Source: a phage
DNA: 64,000 bases
Sequence record: PZ386959.1
Direction: 5' to 3' (one strand)
Shown: positions 3,587-25,030 of the stretch, in pieces
How positions within the stretch are numbered: position 1 is the first letter of the stretch
How the letters are laid out: the number at the start of each line of letters is the position of its first letter
Notes under the pieces: model-generated
The model's database searches: none
Told to the model about the DNA's origin: nothing
Seen by the model: the letters and a program-made list of their open reading frames with translations, nothing else
Position numbers and translations under genes: made by a program

Positions 3587-3918
3587 TGGGAACATTAACT
3601 ATTGATGGTAAGAATAAAATCCTCGCCACGCTAACCCCAACGACTATTATTTTACACAATGTAGACCCAACGGCAGACCCTACAGCAAATAAGGTTACTC
3701 AGCCAGTGGCTATTTATTTTTCTGAACCGGATAATGGCTTAATTGCCTCAGAAGACACAGTTAATATTACTGTCCCAGCTTCTGCAACGGTCTCACACTA
3801 TAGCTTGTGGGATGCTAACGATAAATGCGTGGCAACTGGTGCTCTTAGCAAACCTCAATTCTTTGCTGAAGAAGGTATCTATGTTATCTCTTCAGTCTCT
3901 GTAGATTTAAACAAATAG
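3586..3918 (+). CDS. hypothetical head-module protein
   Basis: ORF in the head module with an overlapping stop-start junction to the previous gene; no motif recognised. Confidence 0.3.
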   Translation: MGTLTIDGKNKILATLTPTTIILHNVDPTADPTANKVTQPVAIYFSEPDNGLIASEDTVNITVPASATVSHYSLWDANDKCVATGALSKPQFFAEEGIYVISSVSVDLNK

Positions 3919-3929
3919 GGTGAGTAAAA

Positions 3930-5276
3930 ATGAGTTCGAATATCTTCAGACTTGCTGATAGATTATTCAACCAACCTTTACTAGCCACTGAATCATTAGC
4001 TCACTCAGCAGCAACTTATGTGAATAACAGATTGCTGGGTGATGTCCAAGCAGCAGTAAACTTTGATAAACCCAAAGGTGAAGCAAGAAGTCTTTTAAAA
4101 GTAAAAGATGACATTGCTATTATCCCTATTATGGGTGGTTTAACCCATCGTATGACATTCATTGATGCAATGTGCACAGGTGGTTTAAGCTCTTATGAAG
4201 GTTTACGTAGAGGCTTTGACGAAGCTTTAGCAGATGAGTCAATTAAGACTATTGTTCTGCATATTGATTCTGGTGGTGGTGAAGCTTCAGGTTGCTTTGA
4301 ATTAGCACGTCACATTATGGCTTCAAGAGGCCAAAAGAAAATTATTGCTTATGTAGATGAGTTCGCTTGTTCCGCTGCATATGCTCTTGCATCTTCTGCT
4401 GAAGAAATTATTGCATCACCAGATGCAGATGTTGGTTCTATTGGTGTAATCATGGTTCATCAGGAATTAACTAAGGCATTTGAAAAGAATGGCGTAACAA
4501 TTAACGTCATCAAAGCTGGTGAGTTTAAAGGTATGGGTTCACCATTCCAAGCACTCTCAGAAGAAAGCAAAGAAAGACTTCAAAAGAGGATTAATGATAC
4601 CTACGCAACCTTTACAGGTTTTGTAGCCGAATCTCGTAATCTCTCTGAAGAAGCTGTAAAGAATACTGAGGCGAATGTTTATTCTGCTCAGGAAGCTCTT
4701 GAACTTGGTTTAATTAACTCAATCATGTCTCAAGATGATTTCTTAAATTACTTACAAGGTTCTGAAGAGGCTCCTGTAAGTTTAAACGTTAACAATTCAG
4801 GTGAAGAAATGACTGAACAAGAAAAGCAAGAACTAGAAGCTTTGCGTCTTCAGGTTGCTCAAATGAAAGCTAAAGAACAGGAAGCTGCTTTGTCAGATTT
4901 GACTAATAAGATTTCTGCTTCTGCTGAAGCTTTTGGATTTGATGCAAAAGAAGCTGCAACGACTATTTTAGGTGCTGGTCTTGATAACCCTCTGAGTGTT
5001 CTGTTTATGAATGCTATGGAAGGTGCTAACCAGAAACTTAATGAAACTATCGCGTCCCACGCTTCTGCAATGGAAGAAAAAGAATCAGAAATTACCAAGC
5101 TGAAAGAAACTGCTGGTGCTGTTCTTGAACATTCCAACGCTATGGAAGAAATGGGTAATGACGGCGAAGCTGATTTGGTTGAAGAAGAAAAAGAACCAGC
5201 TAAGAATGCTTCCGAAGACACCGCTGAACAACGCAAACTGGCTCTCCAGAATGCTCTAAAATCTCTTATTAAATAA
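3930..5276 (+). CDS. prohead protease of S49/SppA type with a C-terminal coiled-coil scaffold-like domain
   Basis: Segment HIDSGGGEASG...DEFACSAAYALASSAEEIIASPDADVGSIGV resembles the S49 peptidase core; the C-terminal third is Ala/Glu/Lys-rich and predicted coiled coil; sits between portal and capsid genes as lambda gpC/Nu3 does. Confidence 0.65.
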   Translation: MSSNIFRLADRLFNQPLLATESLAHSAATYVNNRLLGDVQAAVNFDKPKGEARSLLKVKDDIAIIPIMGGLTHRMTFIDAMCTGGLSSYEGLRRGFDEALADESIKTIVLHIDSGGGEASGCFELARHIMASRGQKKIIAYVDEFACSAAYALASSAEEIIASPDADVGSIGVIMVHQELTKAFEKNGVTINVIKAGEFKGMGSPFQALSEESKERLQKRINDTYATFTGFVAESRNLSEEAVKNTEANVYSAQEALELGLINSIMSQDDFLNYLQGSEEAPVSLNVNNSGEEMTEQEKQELEALRLQVAQMKAKEQEAALSDLTNKISASAEAFGFDAKEAATTILGAGLDNPLSVLFMNAMEGANQKLNETIASHASAMEEKESEITKLKETAGAVLEHSNAMEEMGNDGEADLVEEEKEPAKNASEDTAEQRKLALQNALKSLIK

Positions 5277-5287
5277 GGAACACAATA

Positions 5288-5665
5288 ATGGCATATGAAG
5301 GTTTTACTAAGCTAGGTAAAAGAGAACCTCTGAATGATATCATTCTTTGGGAACAGATTACCCCAACAGGCCACTCTCGTAAAGAGTACACTCCAGTTGC
5401 TTCAACAGAATACCGTGTAGGTGAAGTTTTGAAAGCAGATGGTACTAAAGTTGCAGCAGGGGAAGAAACTCAGGCTGATTCTGTATGTATCGTTAACTTT
5501 TATGCAGACCTGCAACTGTCTTACCACGGTCAGTTGAAAGTCGTTGGTATTTACCGCGACGCAGAACTGAAAGACCTGCTTACTCTTGAATCAGATGTTG
5601 ATGCTGCTGAGGTCAAGAAAGCTCTGGCTGCTAAAGGTATTGATTTCGTACCAACTGGCCTGTAA
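5288..5665 (+). CDS. head decoration protein-like
   Basis: 125-aa ORF immediately upstream of the major capsid gene, with the same high-expression codon usage (ctg/cgt/ggt); call is from position and size. Confidence 0.35.
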   Translation: MAYEGFTKLGKREPLNDIILWEQITPTGHSRKEYTPVASTEYRVGEVLKADGTKVAAGEETQADSVCIVNFYADLQLSYHGQLKVVGIYRDAELKDLLTLESDVDAAEVKKALAAKGIDFVPTGL

Positions 5666-5698
5666 TAACAATAATAAGACATTCTGGAGAATTTTACA

Positions 5699-6805
5699 AT
5701 GTTGACTAATTCTGAAAAAAGCAGATTTTTCCTTGCTGACCTGACTGGTGAAGTCCAGTCTATCCCAAATACTTATGGGTATATTTCCAACTTAGGTCTG
5801 TTCCGTTCAGCACCAATCACCCAAACTACTTTCCTTATGGACTTGACTGATTGGGATGTTAGCTTGCTTGATGCGGTAGACCGTGATAGCCGTAAAGCAG
5901 AGACTAGCGCACCTGAGCGTGTCCGTCAAATCAGCTTCCCAATGATGTACTTCAAAGAAGTTGAAAGCATCACTCCTGATGAAATTCAGGGTGTACGTCA
6001 GCCAGGCACTGCAAACGAACTGACTACTGAAGCAGTAGTACGTGCTAAGAAGCTGATGAAGATTCGTACCAAGTTCGATATTACTCGTGAGTTCCTGTTT
6101 ATGCAAGCTCTGAAGGGTAAAGTTGTTGATGCTCGTGGTACTCTGTACGCTGACCTGTACAAGCAGTTCGACGTTGAGAAGAAGACTGTTTACTTCGACC
6201 TTGACAACCCTAATGCTGACATCGACGCTTCTATTGAAGAACTGCGTATGCACATGGAAGACGAAGCTAAGACTGGCACTGTAATCAACGGTGAAGAAAT
6301 TCACGTAGTTGTTGACCGTGTGTTCTTCAGCAAACTGGTTAAGCATCCTAAGATTCGTGACGCTTATCTTGCACAGCAGACTCCACTGGCTTGGCAGCAG
6401 ATTACTGGTTCTCTGAGAACTGGTGGTACTGACGGCGTTCAGGCTCACATGAACACTTTCTACTACGGTGGTGTTAAGTTTGTCCAGTACAACGGTAAGT
6501 TCAAAGACAAGCGTGGTAAGGTTCACACTCTGGTGAGCATTGACAGCGTAGCAGACACTGTTGGTGTTGGTCATGCTTTCCCTAACGTTTCTATGCTGGG
6601 TGAAGCAAACAACATTTTCGAAGTTGCATATGGTCCATGTCCTAAGATGGGTTATGCAAATACACTTGGTCAGGAACTGTACGTATTCGAATACGAAAAA
6701 GACCGTGACGAAGGTATTGACTTTGAAGCTCACTCTTACATGCTGCCATACTGTACTCGTCCTCAGTTGCTGGTAGATGTTCGTGCTGACGCCAAAGGTG
6801 ACTGA
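5699..6805 (+). CDS. major capsid protein
   Basis: 368-aa ORF after the protease and decoration-like genes; strongly biased codon usage typical of highly expressed enterobacterial genes. Confidence 0.6.
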   Translation: MLTNSEKSRFFLADLTGEVQSIPNTYGYISNLGLFRSAPITQTTFLMDLTDWDVSLLDAVDRDSRKAETSAPERVRQISFPMMYFKEVESITPDEIQGVRQPGTANELTTEAVVRAKKLMKIRTKFDITREFLFMQALKGKVVDARGTLYADLYKQFDVEKKTVYFDLDNPNADIDASIEELRMHMEDEAKTGTVINGEEIHVVVDRVFFSKLVKHPKIRDAYLAQQTPLAWQQITGSLRTGGTDGVQAHMNTFYYGGVKFVQYNGKFKDKRGKVHTLVSIDSVADTVGVGHAFPNVSMLGEANNIFEVAYGPCPKMGYANTLGQELYVFEYEKDRDEGIDFEAHSYMLPYCTRPQLLVDVRADAKGD

Positions 6806-11258: not shown

Positions 11259-19277
<8,019 letters not shown>

Positions 19278-19279
19278 TA

Positions 19280-20467
19280 ATGGCGGTAGGTGAAATTCAA
19301 ATTAGTGCCTTGCCTCAAGCAGCCTTACCAATTGACCTTAGTGATATCTTCCATCTTAAGCAGGGTATTGAGGATAAGAGATGTACTCTTGAGCAATTAC
19401 TTGCTCCACACTCAAGCCTAAGAAATAACCCTCATGGTGTTACTAAAACACAAATTGGTTTAGATAATGTTATTAATGCTCTTCAGTTAGTTGCTGCAAA
19501 TAACTTATCAGATGTTGTTAATGTAGCTGAGGCAAGAGCAAATCTACAGATTATGTCTTCAGAAGAGGTTAATAACCTTGTTCAACAGCATATTCAGGAC
19601 AAGAGCAACCCACACAATACAACTAAGGCACAGGTAGGGTTGAGCAATGTCCAGAACTGGACAACATCGAACCTTTATAACGAAGATGCAGATAAGTATG
19701 CTACAGCAAGAGCAGTAAATAACTTGTACAAGGCTGTTCAGGCTTCTTATCCAGTAGGTACTATCCATCTTTCTATGAACTCTGCAAACCCTTCTACATA
19801 CTTAATTTGTGGAGGAACTTGGGAGTTAGTTTCAAAAGGTAGAGCATTGGTTGGTTATGACTCTGACACAAGACCAGCAGGTTCTGTATTTGGTGCTTCA
19901 ACTGTTACTTTGTCAGTTAATAACATGCCTCAACATTCACACTCCGTGTCTCTTAGTGGTGGTGGTCATGCTCATAATGCAACTGTGTCAATTTCAGCTT
20001 TTGACTATGGAACTAAGACTACCAACTCTTTTGACTATGGAACTAAGACCACTAACACAACTGGTAACCATAACCATGTTGGTAGTGGGTCAACAAGTTC
20101 TGCTGGTGCTCATAACCACAGATTGACCTATGAATCAGGTGGTGGTTTATCGGAAAGACCTGCAATGGTTTGGTCTTCAAGGAATGACCAATCATGGTAT
20201 TCAGCAGATGCTGTCTGTGAAGTAGCTGGTGCACACACTCACTCTTTCAGTGTTACCACTAACACAACTGGTAACCACAACCATACGGTTGGTATTGGTG
20301 CTCACAGCCACACAGTTGGTATTGGTTCACATACACACAATGGTACTGTAACAGTTTCTTCTTCTGAGCATACGCATAGCGGGAACACTAATAGTGTTGG
20401 TGGTGGACAAGCTTTCAACATTGAGCAGCCATCCTTTGTACTGTATGTATGGCAGAGAACAGCTTAA
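19280..20467 (+). CDS. tail fibre protein with C-terminal His-rich collar-type domain
   Basis: C-terminal region has repeated HxH/HxHxH segments (HSHSVSLSGGGHAHNATVS, NHNHVGSG, AHTHSFSV, AHSHTVGIGSHTHNG) and the ending QAFNIEQPSFVLYVWQRTA typical of phage tail collar domains; contains a 30-nt tandem duplication. Confidence 0.65.
   Translation: MAVGEIQISALPQAALPIDLSDIFHLKQGIEDKRCTLEQLLAPHSSLRNNPHGVTKTQIGLDNVINALQLVAANNLSDVVNVAEARANLQIMSSEEVNNLVQQHIQDKSNPHNTTKAQVGLSNVQNWTTSNLYNEDADKYATARAVNNLYKAVQASYPVGTIHLSMNSANPSTYLICGGTWELVSKGRALVGYDSDTRPAGSVFGASTVTLSVNNMPQHSHSVSLSGGGHAHNATVSISAFDYGTKTTNSFDYGTKTTNTTGNHNHVGSGSTSSAGAHNHRLTYESGGGLSERPAMVWSSRNDQSWYSADAVCEVAGAHTHSFSVTTNTTGNHNHTVGIGAHSHTVGIGSHTHNGTVTVSSSEHTHSGNTNSVGGGQAFNIEQPSFVLYVWQRTA
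19999..20058 (+). repeat. 30-nt tandem duplication inside tail fibre 1
   Basis: TTTTGACTATGGAACTAAGACTACCAACTC followed by TTTTGACTATGGAACTAAGACCACTAACAC, encoding FDYGTKTTNS twice. Confidence 0.8.
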
Positions 20468-20476
20468 TTTCTTTAC

Positions 20477-20497
20477 AGGGGCTTGATAGCCCCTTTT
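20477..20497 (+). terminator. weak hairpin/terminator between the two tail fibre genes
   Basis: Stem GGGGCT / AGCCCC with loop TGAT followed by TTTT; short U-tract. Confidence 0.35.
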
Positions 20498-20513
20498 AAG
20501 AGGAAAATTTATA

Positions 20514-22901
20514 ATGGCAGATTACAAGTTGAGTGAATTAAACTCAATTGATACAATCCGTTCAGACGACCTTCTTCATGTCAGAGTTAAAAAGAGACCT
20601 GAAATGCTGGGTGATGAAGACCGTCGAATGACCTATCAAGACTTCTTAGCATCTTTTAAACTTGAAAGATTTGTTCAGATTGCTGGTAGTACTATGACGG
20701 ATGATTTAGGGATTGTTAAGCTACTTTATGGTGGTAAAGTAGTATTTAACCCAACAGGCTCTTCTGAGATTAATATTGGGGACGTTTTAAAGACTTTTAA
20801 AATTAACGCAAATGGTCTTAAGCTAACTGTTGCAGATGCTTCAAGGTCGGCAACTGTTTATCATACTCTGAATAAGCCAAGCCCTAGTGAGCTTGGGATG
20901 AGAACTAATGAAGAGAATGACACGAGATACTCAAGATTAGCTGCAAATAACACCTTTAGAGGTACTCAAGCTATTCTCTCTGACAATGAAGCCCTTATTG
21001 TTAAGAATATCACACAAGGGATGCCACTCTATATTCGTGGTCAAGATGCAGATGGCACCAACAGATGGTATCTAGGCAATGATAATAAAGGCACAGACAA
21101 CCTTGTTTTAAAAAACGTTAAATCTGGTGCATACGTAGCGATTTTAGCTAACCTAATCTCTGTGAATAAATCAATTCAAATCACTGGTCAAGTTCAACCT
21201 TCTGATTGGACTAACTTAGATGCTAGGTATTTTACTCAGACAGCAGCTAATCAGAGGTTTGCACAGTTAGCTGGTGATAATACCTTTAGAGGCGTGAATA
21301 CATTTAATCAAATCCTATCAATTGAGACGAATAGTGCAGCCTTAAGGTTAAAAAATACTGTAGCTAATGGTGCACTGTACATTAAAGGTGAAAGTAATGA
21401 TGGCTCTGGTAAGTGGTATGTAGGTAATGGTGATAATACACCTGCCGTATTAATTCACAACTATACATATGGGTCTAATCTTAGACTCGACAATGGTTAT
21501 GTTGAGGTTAATAAGCAACTTAAAGTCGTTGGTCAAGTTCAACCTTCTGATTGGACTAACATTGATTCTAGATACATTCCAGCGGCTACTTTGAGTAATC
21601 TTGCTAAACTAAGTGATGTAAACACTTTCAGGTCTGTACAGGTTATCAATCTGAATGGCTCATTATTACAGCTAAAGAACACTACACAAGACAGAGAGCT
21701 ATACTTTGCTGGTCATAATGCTGATGGTGTTAGAAGGTGGTACATTGGTAATGGGGAACCATCCAACCCAACAAGGTTTACTATCCGTAACGACAGAACT
21801 GCAACTACGCTTTATATGCAAGATGATTTCTTGTTGGATAAAAATGTCAGAATTACTGGTCAAGTTCAACCTTCAGATTTCTCTAACTTAGATGCTAGAT
21901 ATTTCTTGAAAACAAAACTATTAAACCAATCTTTAATGACAAGGACAGCTAATAGACTGGATGACCCATCATCATTCAACAAAGATTATTCAGGATTTGT
22001 AAGAAACAACGCTATTGAGCAGGGTCTGAAAGATTTAGCCATCCATGTAGCACATTCTGCTGGTATTGCTCATGCCAGAGGTATCGCTTTTACATATGGG
22101 TCTAAAGGTCTTGATGTCTTCACATACGCTTATGGGTCAGATGGAGCATATGTTGGAGAGGCACAGTTGTATTCAACGGTATTTAAACCAACCCCTTCAG
22201 ATATTGGTGCATACACTAAAGTAGAAACTGACCAGAAAATTGCAACAGCAATTAGTGACTCTACAGACCTTAATAAAATCTATCCAGTAGGCATTGTAAC
22301 GTGGTTTAACAGTAATGTTGACCCTAACACAGCGTTGCCTGGGTTAACTTGGACGTACCTGAACAATGGTGTTGGTAGAACTATCAGAATCGCAGCAGCT
22401 AACGGTTCAGATGTTGCTACAACTGGTGGTTCAGATTCTGTAACATTAGCTGTTGGTAACTTACCATCACACACTCACAGCTTCTCTGCTACCACTTCAT
22501 CTTTTGATTATGGTACGAAGAGCACTAATAGTACTGGTGGTCACACCCACACTGTAAGTGGTACAACAAGTGCTGCGGGTAACCATGCTCACCACTTAGG
22601 TCTGCTATTGGTTAATGGTGGTGATGCTCAGTACGGTTATACCACTATTGGTAACAATAAGACAAGAACTCTTGACTGGCTTGACAGAACTGATAACAAG
22701 TTCCCTAACACTAACACAACTGGTAACCATACACACACATGGTCTGGTACTACAAGCAACACTGGCGCTCACACCCACTCTGTAGGTATTGGTGCTCACA
22801 CCCATACAGTTAGTGGTAACACTGGTAGTACAGGTTCTGGTTCAGCATTTAGTGTTACTAACCAGTTCTATAAGTTAATGGCTTGGGTAAGAACTGCTTA
22901 A
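20514..22901 (+). CDS. tail fibre protein (long), with triplicated internal module and C-terminal His-rich collar-type domain
   Basis: Three copies of a module containing ITGQVQPSDWTNLDARYF / VVGQVQPSDWTNIDSRYI / ITGQVQPSDFSNLDARYF; C-terminus has HTHSFSATT, GGHTHTVSG, NHAHH, AHTHSVGIGAHTHTVSG and ends ...FYKLMAWVRTA. Confidence 0.65.
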   Translation: MADYKLSELNSIDTIRSDDLLHVRVKKRPEMLGDEDRRMTYQDFLASFKLERFVQIAGSTMTDDLGIVKLLYGGKVVFNPTGSSEINIGDVLKTFKINANGLKLTVADASRSATVYHTLNKPSPSELGMRTNEENDTRYSRLAANNTFRGTQAILSDNEALIVKNITQGMPLYIRGQDADGTNRWYLGNDNKGTDNLVLKNVKSGAYVAILANLISVNKSIQITGQVQPSDWTNLDARYFTQTAANQRFAQLAGDNTFRGVNTFNQILSIETNSAALRLKNTVANGALYIKGESNDGSGKWYVGNGDNTPAVLIHNYTYGSNLRLDNGYVEVNKQLKVVGQVQPSDWTNIDSRYIPAATLSNLAKLSDVNTFRSVQVINLNGSLLQLKNTTQDRELYFAGHNADGVRRWYIGNGEPSNPTRFTIRNDRTATTLYMQDDFLLDKNVRITGQVQPSDFSNLDARYFLKTKLLNQSLMTRTANRLDDPSSFNKDYSGFVRNNAIEQGLKDLAIHVAHSAGIAHARGIAFTYGSKGLDVFTYAYGSDGAYVGEAQLYSTVFKPTPSDIGAYTKVETDQKIATAISDSTDLNKIYPVGIVTWFNSNVDPNTALPGLTWTYLNNGVGRTIRIAAANGSDVATTGGSDSVTLAVGNLPSHTHSFSATTSSFDYGTKSTNSTGGHTHTVSGTTSAAGNHAHHLGLLLVNGGDAQYGYTTIGNNKTRTLDWLDRTDNKFPNTNTTGNHTHTWSGTTSNTGAHTHSVGIGAHTHTVSGNTGSTGSGSAFSVTNQFYKLMAWVRTA

Positions 22902-22908
22902 TCCCTTG

Positions 22909-22962
22909 TTGACTGATTGTTAAGATGGTGTTAATATTCTTTATGGGTATTCTCACCATCTT
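22909..22962 (+). promoter_or_regulatory. promoter-like site with a 9-bp inverted repeat spanning the -10 region
   Basis: -35 TTGACT (22909-22914), 17-nt spacer, -10 TAATAT (22932-22937); inverted repeat AAGATGGTG (22922-22930) / CACCATCTT (22954-22962). Confidence 0.35.
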
Positions 22963-22980: not shown

Positions 22981-23178
22981 ATGCCTACAATCCTAGCAAT
23001 TCTTCTAAAAAATCTAGGTAGCTTCTTCTGGAAACTCATTTTATCCCTTCTAAGTGAATACATGATTGAGAAAGTGTTCTTTAGGCTTGCAAGATACCTT
23101 GCGAGTAAAACAGACACACCTATTGATGATGAGTTCGTAGATAACTTAGAAAAAGCTTTTAAGGGGGAGAATAAATGA
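22981..23178 (+). CDS. small hydrophobic protein (possible membrane protein)
   Basis: 65-aa ORF with a hydrophobic N-terminal half (ILAILLKNLGSFFWKLILSLL); lies after the fibre genes behind a promoter-like site. Confidence 0.35.
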   Translation: MPTILAILLKNLGSFFWKLILSLLSEYMIEKVFFRLARYLASKTDTPIDDEFVDNLEKAFKGENK

Positions 23179-23546
23179 AGTGGCTAGAGGAAGCTTTTAA
23201 AAATAATATTGGTGCAATTGTAGTTGGTATTTTTAGTGTTATTGGGATGTATACCACGATGCAAGTTTCAAGTGGTAAACAAGAAGTGTCTGTCACAACA
23301 AAGTTACAGCAGCTAGATAATTATTCCAAAAGTAACTATTCAGCTATTCGTGATTTACAGTCTGACATGAGACTGATTCAGCTAGGGATGGAGAACCAGA
23401 AAGTTCAGTTAGAGAATGTTAAGGGTGAAAACGCAAAACTTACCAAAACTCTTGATAAATTCTCTGACAGTGTGAATAATCTGGCTCAATCAGTATCAGC
23501 CCTCCAAGCTATTACTGAGAAGAACACAAAGAATACTGAAAAATAA
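23175..23546 (+). CDS. single-pass membrane protein with coiled-coil domain
   Basis: 123-aa ORF with N-terminal transmembrane segment (IGAIVVGIFSVIGMY) followed by a heptad-like Q/L/N-rich region; followed by a bidirectional terminator. Confidence 0.35.
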   Translation: MKWLEEAFKNNIGAIVVGIFSVIGMYTTMQVSSGKQEVSVTTKLQQLDNYSKSNYSAIRDLQSDMRLIQLGMENQKVQLENVKGENAKLTKTLDKFSDSVNNLAQSVSALQAITEKNTKNTEK

Positions 23547-23552
23547 AATTTT

Positions 23553-23580
23553 AAGGCTCCTTTTGACGGGAGCCTTTTTT
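23553..23580. terminator. bidirectional rho-independent terminator between convergent blocks
   Basis: Stem AGGCTCC / GGAGCCT flanked by A-run upstream and TTTTTTGTTTT downstream, so functional in both orientations; sits between ORF 23175-23546 (+) and thyA (-). Confidence 0.65.
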
Positions 23581-23583
23581 GTT

Positions 23584-24483
23584 TTATTTACCTACTGACA
23601 AAGGTGCTTCAATCTTTCCTGCATGTTTGTAGTTGTTGATGCCACCAATAAAGTCACTTGCAGTAAGATGTTTTAAGTCACTTAAGGTGTTAAGTTGTAC
23701 ACCAATCTCAAAAGTAGGTGCATGGAACTCTTCATTGTTCATCAGTTCATAAACCTGCTTCATATGGTTCTGGTAAATCTGAGTATCCCCAAAGACACCT
23801 ATCAAGTATCGTGGAGTGTATCCAGTCATCTTACAAAGAACTTCCAGAATAAAACCATAAGACGCAATATTAAATGGAAGCCCTAAAAAGGTGTCTACAG
23901 AACGCTGATACCATTGCAAGTCAACTTCACCTTCGTTGGTGATATAAATCTGAAACAGAACATGACAAGGTGCTAAAGCCATTGAGTTTGCTGCAATATC
24001 TGCTGCATTCCAAGCATTAACAAGCATGTAACGGTCTGTGATATCACCTTTCATCTTCGTTACTAAGGTTTCTAACTGGTCTACAACACAACCATTATGA
24101 CCTTCAAAGTTTCTCCACTGAACCCCGTAGATTCTCCCACCTGCATCTTCTAACCAGTCTTGCTCAGAAGAATAGTTAGAGCTTAACCAACGTTTAAAAT
24201 CATCTGACCAGATAGTCCAACGTTCTCCATCATTTTCACCCCAAGTGCGATAACGGAGTTCACCAAGTTTATTCTCACCGTTCAGGAACCATAAAGCTTC
24301 CCCAATAACTTGCCGTGTAAACACCTGTTTAGATGTCAATAGTGGAAAACCAGTCCTCATATCAAAACGAAACTGAGGTGGAGCGAATGCAGAGATAACA
24401 TCTCCAGTTCGTGTAGTACGCAGTTCACCGACTGATAAAACATGGTTCAGGATATTTTTATAACTTGAATCTGCTTGTGACAT
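23584..24483 (-). CDS. thyA: thymidylate synthase
   Basis: Conserved ThyA segment ...AWNAADIAANSMALAPCHVLFQIYITNEGEVDLQWYQRSVDTFLGLPFNIASY... including the catalytic Cys motif. Confidence 0.9.
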   Translation of the reverse strand: MSQADSSYKNILNHVLSVGELRTTRTGDVISAFAPPQFRFDMRTGFPLLTSKQVFTRQVIGEALWFLNGENKLGELRYRTWGENDGERWTIWSDDFKRWLSSNYSSEQDWLEDAGGRIYGVQWRNFEGHNGCVVDQLETLVTKMKGDITDRYMLVNAWNAADIAANSMALAPCHVLFQIYITNEGEVDLQWYQRSVDTFLGLPFNIASYGFILEVLCKMTGYTPRYLIGVFGDTQIYQNHMKQVYELMNNEEFHAPTFEIGVQLNTLSDLKHLTASDFIGGINNYKHAGKIEAPLSVGK

Positions 24484-24484
24484 A

Positions 24485-25030
24485 TCAAAAGTGTCCTTTT
24501 ACTTGTGGAACATAAATTTCAAAGGTTGCTTTACCATCCTCTGATGGTTTTGACTGTACCTTTGTAAATACACGGTTATCATACAGCTTCTCAAAGAAGT
24601 TTTCAAAAGGTAAATGCACAGTGGCCTCTTCAGTAACTTTATGGAAGACTGTATGGAACACCACACCAGCATACGGTAAAGCATTGACAAGGACACCTGC
24701 ACCACCAATTACAAAGACATCTTCATCAATAGAGCTATCAAGATACTTCAAAAATGCTCCAAATGACTCTTTACTGGCTTTAGCATACATTACATCATCT
24801 TTGCCAAAGTCTATACCTAAGTATGGTACAGAATTTGTTAAGATGAGGTTTGCACGTTCTGGTAAAGGTTTACTACCCAGAGTCTTAAAAGTCTCATTAC
24901 CCATGACTACTAAGTTATTTTTAGTGAGTCTCTTAAACTCTTGCATGTCCTGTTTATGTCGAGGCCACGGCATACCAGTTGGAGTACCAAACTCTCCATT
25001 TTCACCGCTTGCAAAGATTAATTTAATCAT
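24485..25030 (-). CDS. frd: dihydrofolate reductase
   Basis: N-terminus MIKLIFASGENGEFGTPTGMPWPRHKQDMQEFKRLT resembles phage and bacterial DHFR; immediately upstream of thyA in the same operon. Confidence 0.8.
   Translation of the reverse strand: MIKLIFASGENGEFGTPTGMPWPRHKQDMQEFKRLTKNNLVVMGNETFKTLGSKPLPERANLILTNSVPYLGIDFGKDDVMYAKASKESFGAFLKYLDSSIDEDVFVIGGAGVLVNALPYAGVVFHTVFHKVTEEATVHLPFENFFEKLYDNRVFTKVQSKPSEDGKATFEIYVPQVKGHF

Follow-up and report, generated by a model that had tools for sequence, protein, structure and literature searches.

How do two neighbouring phage tail fibre genes that carry internal repeats come to differ among related phages, by a change in the number of the repeats or by an exchange of the segments between them? 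The question is raised by positions 19280-22901 of a 64,000-nt phage sequence (record PZ386959.1, one strand; the whole stretch is called the window below), where two plus-strand open reading frames (ORFs) follow each other, one of 395 aa (19280..20467) and one of 795 aa (20514..22901). A sequence-only reading of this DNA had taken both for tail fibres, and the matches bear it out. PHROG 2097 and PHROG 4277, both annotated as tail fiber protein, span the first and the second product end to end (E 7e-138 and E 0, respectively); the first product also carries Pfam Gp10_C and the second three stretches of PF20744. By megablast the 3.6-kb region is matched by 237 phage records at 80-96% identity, nearly all of them Felix O1-like and from Escherichia, Salmonella or Shigella, the closest being Felixounavirus NRG857CP1 with 95.8% identity over 93% of the region. 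Because of these records and the full-length PHROG matches, the window is taken as part of a Felixounavirus genome, and the two ORFs are assigned by sequence as its short tail fibre (STF, fibre 1) and long tail fibre (LTF, fibre 2) genes. They are the counterparts of gp26 and gp27 in Bas63 and of gp52 and gp53 in Sf14, whose virion structures give lengths of ~430 Å for the STF and ~630 Å for the LTF (PMC12609058, PMC11821841). STF homologues across the Ounavirinae have 354-453 aa and LTF homologues 777-857 aa, and 24 syntenic IMG/VR loci were found.

The explanation that we hold with considerable confidence is that these are a Felixounavirus STF and LTF with T4 gp37-type tips and pyramid-like LTF shaft modules, and that they vary by cassette exchange. 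The shaft of the LTF has three modules, placed with a module hidden Markov model at 20934..21236 (M1, aa 141-241), 21264..21581 (M2, aa 251-356) and 21606..21908 (M3, about aa 365-465). Each module closes in the conserved protein core ITGQVQPSD(W/F)xN(L/I)D(A/S)RY, whose residues are near-invariant and whose DNA lies at 21185-21215, at 21530-21560 and from 21857; a repeat search placed the copies at 21162, 21507 and 21834, which are 345 and 327 nt apart. It had been claimed that three modules of roughly 110 aa share nearly identical nucleotide cores. The three modules and their cores are there, but the near-identity is limited to the core of 18-31 nt, the module proteins being only 39-41% identical pairwise. 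The shared core, TGGTCAAGTTCAACCTTCTGATTGGACTAAC, is exact over 31 nt between M1 and M2, and 18-20 nt of it are common to M3.

Pfam gp37_trimer (PF20744) matches the LTF in three stretches (E 6e-59, 196.5 bits against a cut-off of 21.7), each module lying above the Pfam cut-off. When a profile of 44 modules was compared with the PDB, it matched residues 369-435 of T7 gp17 (7BOZ, E 5e-7; 4A0T and 4A0U, ~1.5e-6) and residues 354-441 of Mu fibre protein S (5YVQ, E 0.0086). At the level of sequence, the modules thus appear to be relatives of the T7 gp17 pyramid domain and of gp37_trimer, and the structural view of the Sf14 authors agrees with pyramid-like shaft modules (PMC11821841). With hhalign, the module profile showed no detectable relation to LTF aa 44-140 or aa 466-584, and therefore we count three modules by sequence and not five. 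Around them, the N-terminal part (20514..20933, aa 1-140), which by its role in Bas63 would hold the baseplate-binding and first shaft domains (PMC12609058), is 88-100% conserved in 116 homologues and carries the same allele in all but one of 22 sequences (the window and 21 loci). Domain 5 (21909..22265, aa 466-584), which closes with the KPTPSDIGAYTKVETDQKI linker, can be exchanged as a cassette of its own. The collar (22266..22463, ~aa 585-650) is 97-100% conserved; its Gp10_C match (aa 587-706) falls below the Pfam gathering cut-off, and many matches of a search of representative proteins are confined to it. The needle-head-needle tip (22464..22898, aa 651-795), with its head cassette at ~aa 695-735, completes the protein. 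In the AlphaFold2 (AF2) model of the LTF, helices fall at the conserved linkers (132-143, 244-253, 357-360 and 569-581) with a predicted local distance difference test score (pLDDT) of 40-60, in weak agreement with the pattern of a beta-domain plus helical turn described for Bas63.

Set against these borders, the variation of the LTF is a mosaic. Conservation extends over the first 135 aa, each of the three cores together with its linker, the collar (aa 585-650) and the C-terminal 45 aa. The bodies of the three modules vary sharply and independently, as do domain 5 (aa 480-570) and the head (aa 690-750); in many loci domain 5 is 0-20% identical between flanks above 90%. At an 85% identity threshold, the same 22 sequences hold 10 alleles of M1, 14 of M2, 13 of M3, 13 of domain 5 and 11 of the head, in many combinations. 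Locus L004 has M1 but not M2 in common with the window, L005 has M2 but neither M1 nor M3, and L008 shares domain 5 only. Taking a breakpoint as a transition between >93% and <80% DNA identity in all 210 pairs, the breakpoints cluster at aa 121-150, 226-255, 331-375, 556-585, 646-675 and 751-780, which are the cores or linkers and the first and last HxH boxes of the tip. The bodies are nearly as different within a slot as between slots, with a median identity of 0.35 in the same slot versus 0.31 across slots.

Some bodies have changed slots. Over ~270 nt, from the NTF motif to the core, L011 has in module 1 a DNA sequence ~95% identical to that of module 3 in L018, between unrelated flanks. 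In a larger protein set a second body allele stands in slot 1 of 29 proteins and in slot 3 of 8, up to 97% identical, so that two alleles are shared by slots 1 and 3 at 94-97% identity; slot-2 bodies were never found at another slot in that set. The cores themselves are more alike in DNA than protein constraint predicts. Within them, 31 of the 39 sites with identical residues use the same codon, as compared with 17.0 expected from the codon usage of the window, whereas outside the core the figure is 36 of 78 sites against an expected 33.6. Together these observations point to conserved joints as the sites of a homologous exchange from which the diversity stems, an exchange between phages and, on occasion, between slots 1 and 3. 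On this view each conserved core would mark a boundary for the swapping of divergent module bodies.

The outermost joints lie in the tips. Both fibres had been said to end in collar-type domains dense in HxH and HxHxH motifs like the metal-coordinating motifs of other phage fibres. The density is real. The STF has 9 HxH motifs (aa 219-366) and the LTF 6 (aa 653-764), compared with 10 in the remaining ORFs of 150 aa or more, which total 14,757 residues, and none of 5000 shuffles of either protein reached the observed count. Neither fibre has a literal HxHxH; the nearest is one HxHH at H691/H693/H694 of the LTF. The likeness to metal-coordinating fibres is one of homology. In phmmer searches of the PDB, aa 146-367 of the STF match residues 18-228 of the T4 gp37 tip (2XGF, E 8e-27) and aa 646-775 of the LTF match residues 92-219 of the same structure (E 4e-20); of the seven iron-binding HxH motifs of T4, seven are aligned in the STF and six in the LTF. 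T4 gp37 has a collar (D10) of a fold common to gp12, gp10 and gp11, followed by a needle that holds seven iron ions bound by the HxH histidines (PMC6957217; the tip homology is also reported in PMC12609058). Because of this alignment we assign the histidines to the needle and not to the collar, which is the Gp10_C-like segment just before it. By analogy, axial metal sites in a homotrimer would be expected in both tips. In the LTF the HxH motifs stand at 653, 677 and 691 on the outward strand and at 739, 753 and 762 on the return strand, with a single FDYGTK unit at aa 664-673. In both fibres a hypervariable insert sits between the outward and the return groups, which would fit the chain-reversal topology of T4.

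The STF is divided in the same manner. Its collar (19700..19924, ~aa 141-215) aligns to 2FKK/5HX2 and to residues 18-90 of 2XGF, the D10 fold of T4 gp10, gp12 and gp37. The Pfam model that matches the C-terminal region is Gp10_C (PF21939, E 7e-19); the related Collar model PF07484 has no match in either fibre at E up to 0.1, and it does appear in more distant matches of the STF homologue search. The collar is the best-predicted segment of the AF2 model (pLDDT 81-89), and its Foldseek match to 2FKK/2FL8 is weak (probability 0.82). Then follow the outward strand of the needle (19925..20119, ~aa 216-280), with HxH at 219, 230, 264 and 278 and an alignment to T4 gp37 motifs 1-3, the head cassette (20120..20227, ~aa 281-316), and the return strand (20228..20389, ~aa 317-370), with HxH at 319, 333, 342, 351 and 364 and an alignment to motifs 4-7. 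Variation is confined to ~aa 260-330, the head and the adjacent strands, where identity to other loci is 10-20% between conserved flanks. The head, with an AF2 pLDDT <50, has 7 alleles in 24 sequences (the window and 23 loci), and its identity to 47 homologues drops to 0.31-0.45; it is presumed to make the receptor contact.

The needle appears to be built of short tandem units, one kind of which had been noticed as an in-frame 30-nt tandem duplication at 19999-20058 of the STF gene. Tandem Repeats Finder reports it at 19998-20056, with a period of 30 nt, 2.0 copies, 93% match and no indels. Placed at about 19998..20059 (aa 241-260), it encodes two FDYGTKTTN decapeptides in frame, AFDYGTKTTN-SFDYGTKTTN, on the outward strand between HxH motifs 1 and 2. 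The repeat is present as described, but it is not private to this phage. We had considered that it might be a recent private duplication and rejected this, since two copies are ancestral: the FDYG[TS]K decapeptide occurs in 1-4 copies among relatives, two being the commonest state of the STF, and T4 gp37 also has two (DLGTKTTS-SFDYGTKGTN). The two copies in the window are unusually alike, with 27 of 30 nt identical as against 16-25 of 30 at other loci, which suggests recent conversion or re-duplication in this lineage. A second short array, absent from the earlier account, lies at 20269-20339, where units of 27 nt (2.0-2.1 copies, 80-85% match by Tandem Repeats Finder) encode GNHNHTVGI, GAHSHTVGI and GSHTHNGTV, the return-strand His boxes of the needle. 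In the N-terminal half of the STF, a motif NPHxxTKxQ(I/V)GLxNVxN occurs twice, at 19424-19477 and 19604-19657, 60 aa apart, with residues that are near-invariant in 44 STF homologues.

The mechanism that we propose runs as follows. Each chain would form the collar and then the needle, run outward, make a small head and return. In the trimer each HxH motif would give six histidines around an axial metal ion, which is iron in T4, and the needle would grow from short tandem units, the 10-aa FDYGTK unit on the outward strand and the 9-aa GxHxHxVxI unit on the return. The LTF shaft would consist of three homologous modules of ~100 aa, each closing in the conserved core. The cores and the outermost HxH boxes, alike in DNA between phages, would serve as crossover points, and therefore the three module bodies, domain 5 and the two heads could reassort independently, with module bodies sometimes moving between slots 1 and 3. 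Which lipopolysaccharide (LPS) structure is bound, and hence the host range, is most likely decided by the head cassettes. For Felix O1-like phages a dependence on LPS is reported, in many cases on the outer core (PMC8594841, PMC11821841). The head alleles of the window are found in 29 deposited phages for the STF and in 36 for the LTF, almost all of them phages of E. coli or Shigella, whereas 79 of the 237 records for the region as a whole come from Salmonella phages. The locus had been called a likely host-range hot spot; it is indeed variable and host-associated, but it would work by cassette exchange rather than by a change of length.

Several points weigh against this explanation. Some clustering of the LTF breakpoints is to be expected in any case, since every variable segment is bordered by conserved ones. 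The codon excess in the cores comes from three pairwise comparisons that are not independent of each other, and recombination is deduced from allele reassortment and cross-slot identity rather than from a formal recombination test. The AF2 monomers have a mean pLDDT of 63.8 for the STF and 45.6 for the LTF, and a Foldseek search of the STF model against the PDB gave no match at E <=0.001. Poor single-chain models are expected because the fibres would be intertwined trimers; we rejected the monomer models as a guide to the trimer, for which they are unusable at such pLDDT. The host skew of the head alleles fits a role in host range but is confounded by phylogeny and by the hosts used for isolation. 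Finally, conservation among the 116 nearest LTF homologues is higher in the tip than along the shaft, so that the shaft could carry part of the specificity.

The internal repeats might instead act mainly through unequal recombination that changes module number and fibre length, as had been supposed from the sequence. Here the comparison of copy number among relatives gave a divided answer, since the 110-aa modules of the LTF are near-constant and the 10-aa FDYGTK unit varies from one to four copies. Of the 144 LTFs compared (120 database proteins, 23 IMG/VR loci and the window), 142 have three modules, and the Bas63 paper reports no variable repeat number among felixounaviruses of the International Committee on Taxonomy of Viruses (PMC12609058). 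The two exceptions are short Logan contigs with two modules each, P0048/L025 (44-2086, encoding 680 aa) and P0052/L026 (1560-3620, encoding 686 aa), and the deletion junction of each lies precisely within the GQVQPSD core. Either the recombinants are real or the assembly collapsed at the repeat. Logan assemblies use a k-mer size of 31 nt, and a collapse is plausible for L025 because its junction falls in the 31-nt exact repeat. The junction of L026 is harder to dismiss than that of L025, as it fuses M2 to M3, where the window shares only 18 nt; no record in the phage collection carries this M2/M3 junction. A separate search of 1.8 billion cluster representatives returned one LTF with five modules (1015 aa, P0241) and one protein with four. 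The five-module gene (L027, 4001-7048) stands on a 77-kb Felix O1-like contig (Logan SRR22802239) in an otherwise unchanged gene neighbourhood. Its modules are 37-64% identical to each other and therefore do not reflect a recent expansion, and by tblastn the closest deposited phage to P0241 is just 49% identical. Module number can thus change, but rarely, and we regard length change through the repeats as an improbable main source of the diversity. Another route would be relaxed constraint only, with missense drift in the shaft, no exchange of segments, and cores kept alike by protein constraint and codon bias. Mutational tolerance is one of three options in the Bas63 Discussion (PMC12609058), the core residues hardly vary, and codon usage in this phage is biased, GGT making up 67% of Gly codons. 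Drift, however, does not account for the reassorting alleles of L004, L005 and L008, each of which shares different parts with the window, for near-identical bodies at different slots between unrelated flanks, or for same-codon use at about twice the expectation in the core and not outside it; we consider it very unlikely indeed.

A different question is what the exchanged shaft bodies are for. The modules may themselves determine specificity or evasion, by binding glycans laterally or as targets of host defence or antibodies, and be diversified for that reason. There are 10-14 alleles per slot, as divergent as paralogues by the medians given above, and conservation in the 116 closest LTF homologues is 81-100% for the tip and falls to 44-78% for the module bodies, in a set that is biased towards sequences sharing the tip of the query. 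The Bas63 authors found the variability of the shaft unexpected and proposed host recognition and defence evasion (PMC12609058). On the other side, in the T7 fibre the receptor is bound by a part of gp17 other than the homologous pyramid domain, LPS contact is given to the tip domain in the Sf14 paper (PMC11821841), and glycan binding or a defence role of the modules is putative. We therefore regard a share of the shaft in specificity as possible, although on balance unlikely. A bolder form, which we think more doubtful, would make the LTF shaft a three-slot combinatorial array drawn from a shared pool of divergent pyramid-like cassettes with joints of 30-50 nt, under diversifying selection through glycan contact or host defence; if so, host range would depend on which five or six cassettes are combined and not on the tip alone. 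Cassette exchange in gp37-tipped fibres, with the heads as the probable receptor contact, remains the explanation that we prefer.

The fibres are of a known kind, because the architecture was published for the same genus in 2025, in Bas63 (JohannRWettstein) and Sf14. These phages have the same gene order after the baseplate wedge genes (PMC12609058, PMC11821841), the same T4 gp37-like tip of collar, HxH needle and head, and an LTF shaft of repeated beta-domains with helical linkers between them. The Sf14 fibres have 391 and 792 aa, as compared with 395 and 795 aa here. The Bas63 LTF has six HxH and one extra His, as here, the extra His giving HHxH in Bas63 and HxHH in the window (PMC12609058), while for the STF we count 9 HxH and seven are reported for Bas63. 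Five beta-helix domains are counted by structure in Bas63, whereas we find three homologous modules by sequence. In both studies the tips and the shaft repeats vary and the repeat number is constant, which is what we see. The allele set of the window differs from those of Bas63 and Sf14, and its best deposited match is the NRG857CP1 record named above. The Bas63 authors give three explanations for the shaft variability, mutational tolerance, host recognition and defence evasion, and do not mention recombination (PMC12609058); neither recombination nor cross-slot cassettes are discussed in the published work on Bas63 and Sf14. The cassette map with its joints and cross-slot transfers is therefore a modest addition to the published architecture, and in other respects the locus is an ordinary member of the described fibre type.

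The homology to T4 gp37 (2XGF) runs from the collar through the needle and includes the two FDYGTK-type decapeptides between HxH motifs 1 and 2, as in the STF. The head of T4 gp37 takes the position of the variable insert, with an unrelated sequence. In T4 this tip is borne on a fibre of four proteins, whereas here it belongs to a single-protein fibre of 395 or 795 aa, and the receptor is OmpC or LPS for T4 and probably the LPS core here. No gene for a gp38- or gp57A-type chaperone was seen beside the fibres, the rest of the window not having been searched, and no Mu-type chaperone is reported in the Sf14 paper (PMC11821841). T7 gp17 has one pyramid domain; the LTF has three tandem copies followed by a T4-type tip in place of the T7 tip domain, and the module profile also reaches Mu protein S. 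Another parallel is offered by the T-even adhesins. According to what Tétart and colleagues reportedly described in 1996 and 1998, Gly-rich and His-rich "His boxes" flank the variable segments of gp37 and gp38 in T-even phages and act as crossover points for swapping specificity, and duplication of a small tip segment is said to change host range. The same logic is paralleled here by the breakpoints at the first and last HxH boxes and by the variable short repeat units. The difference is that here the joints extend into the shaft, at the GQVQPSD cores of the pyramid-like modules, and that modules move between slots.

Felix O1-like phages are used in Salmonella typing, food biocontrol and E. 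coli phage therapy. The map gives six exchangeable cassettes, the STF head, the three LTF module bodies, LTF domain 5 and the LTF head, and it would suggest a design rule for host-range engineering, with the GQVQPSD cores and the outer HxH boxes as the places to make the swaps. The question that the Bas63 work raised about variable shaft repeats is narrowed as well, towards exchange of old alleles and not only drift.

Two further IMG/VR loci carry an interrupted LTF gene. In L015 an ORF of 541 aa lies at 3755-5380, and in L021 one of 453 aa at 3750-5111 is followed by a 311-aa ORF at 5158-6093. The interruptions are either sequencing errors or natural split or truncated fibres; suspected truncated LTFs in EC6 and Si3 are mentioned in the Bas63 paper (PMC12609058).

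The surroundings of the two genes are as follows. The STF gene is preceded by a gene for a baseplate J-like protein (16646-18115), a wedge gene (18118-18975) and an ORF of 100 aa. A scan for promoters and terminators found nothing beyond shuffle expectation inside the fibre genes. About 20 nt past the LTF stop codon is an imperfect 15-nt inverted repeat (22922-22962, 87% complementary, 11-nt loop), which has no T-run and therefore was not called by the terminator scan. Directly 3' of the LTF gene are two small overlapping ORFs. The first (22981-23178, 65 aa) matches phrog_402, and its counterpart in related contigs carries Pfam PF26925 (Phage_PM2_Gpl); the second (23175-23546, 123 aa) matches phrog_4038 and has a faint Rz-like spanin match. 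Only function-unassigned PHROG families are matched by the pair, which from these matches may be membrane or lysis proteins rather than fibre chaperones. A strong hairpin at 23553-23576, intrinsic-terminator-like on both strands, separates the end of the plus-strand fibre operon from a minus-strand thymidylate synthase-like gene. This gene, of 299 aa, shares the interval 23584-25030 on the minus strand with a dihydrofolate reductase-like one of 181 aa; both are assigned from Pfam marks on the syntenic loci L026 and L027 and converge on the fibre operon.

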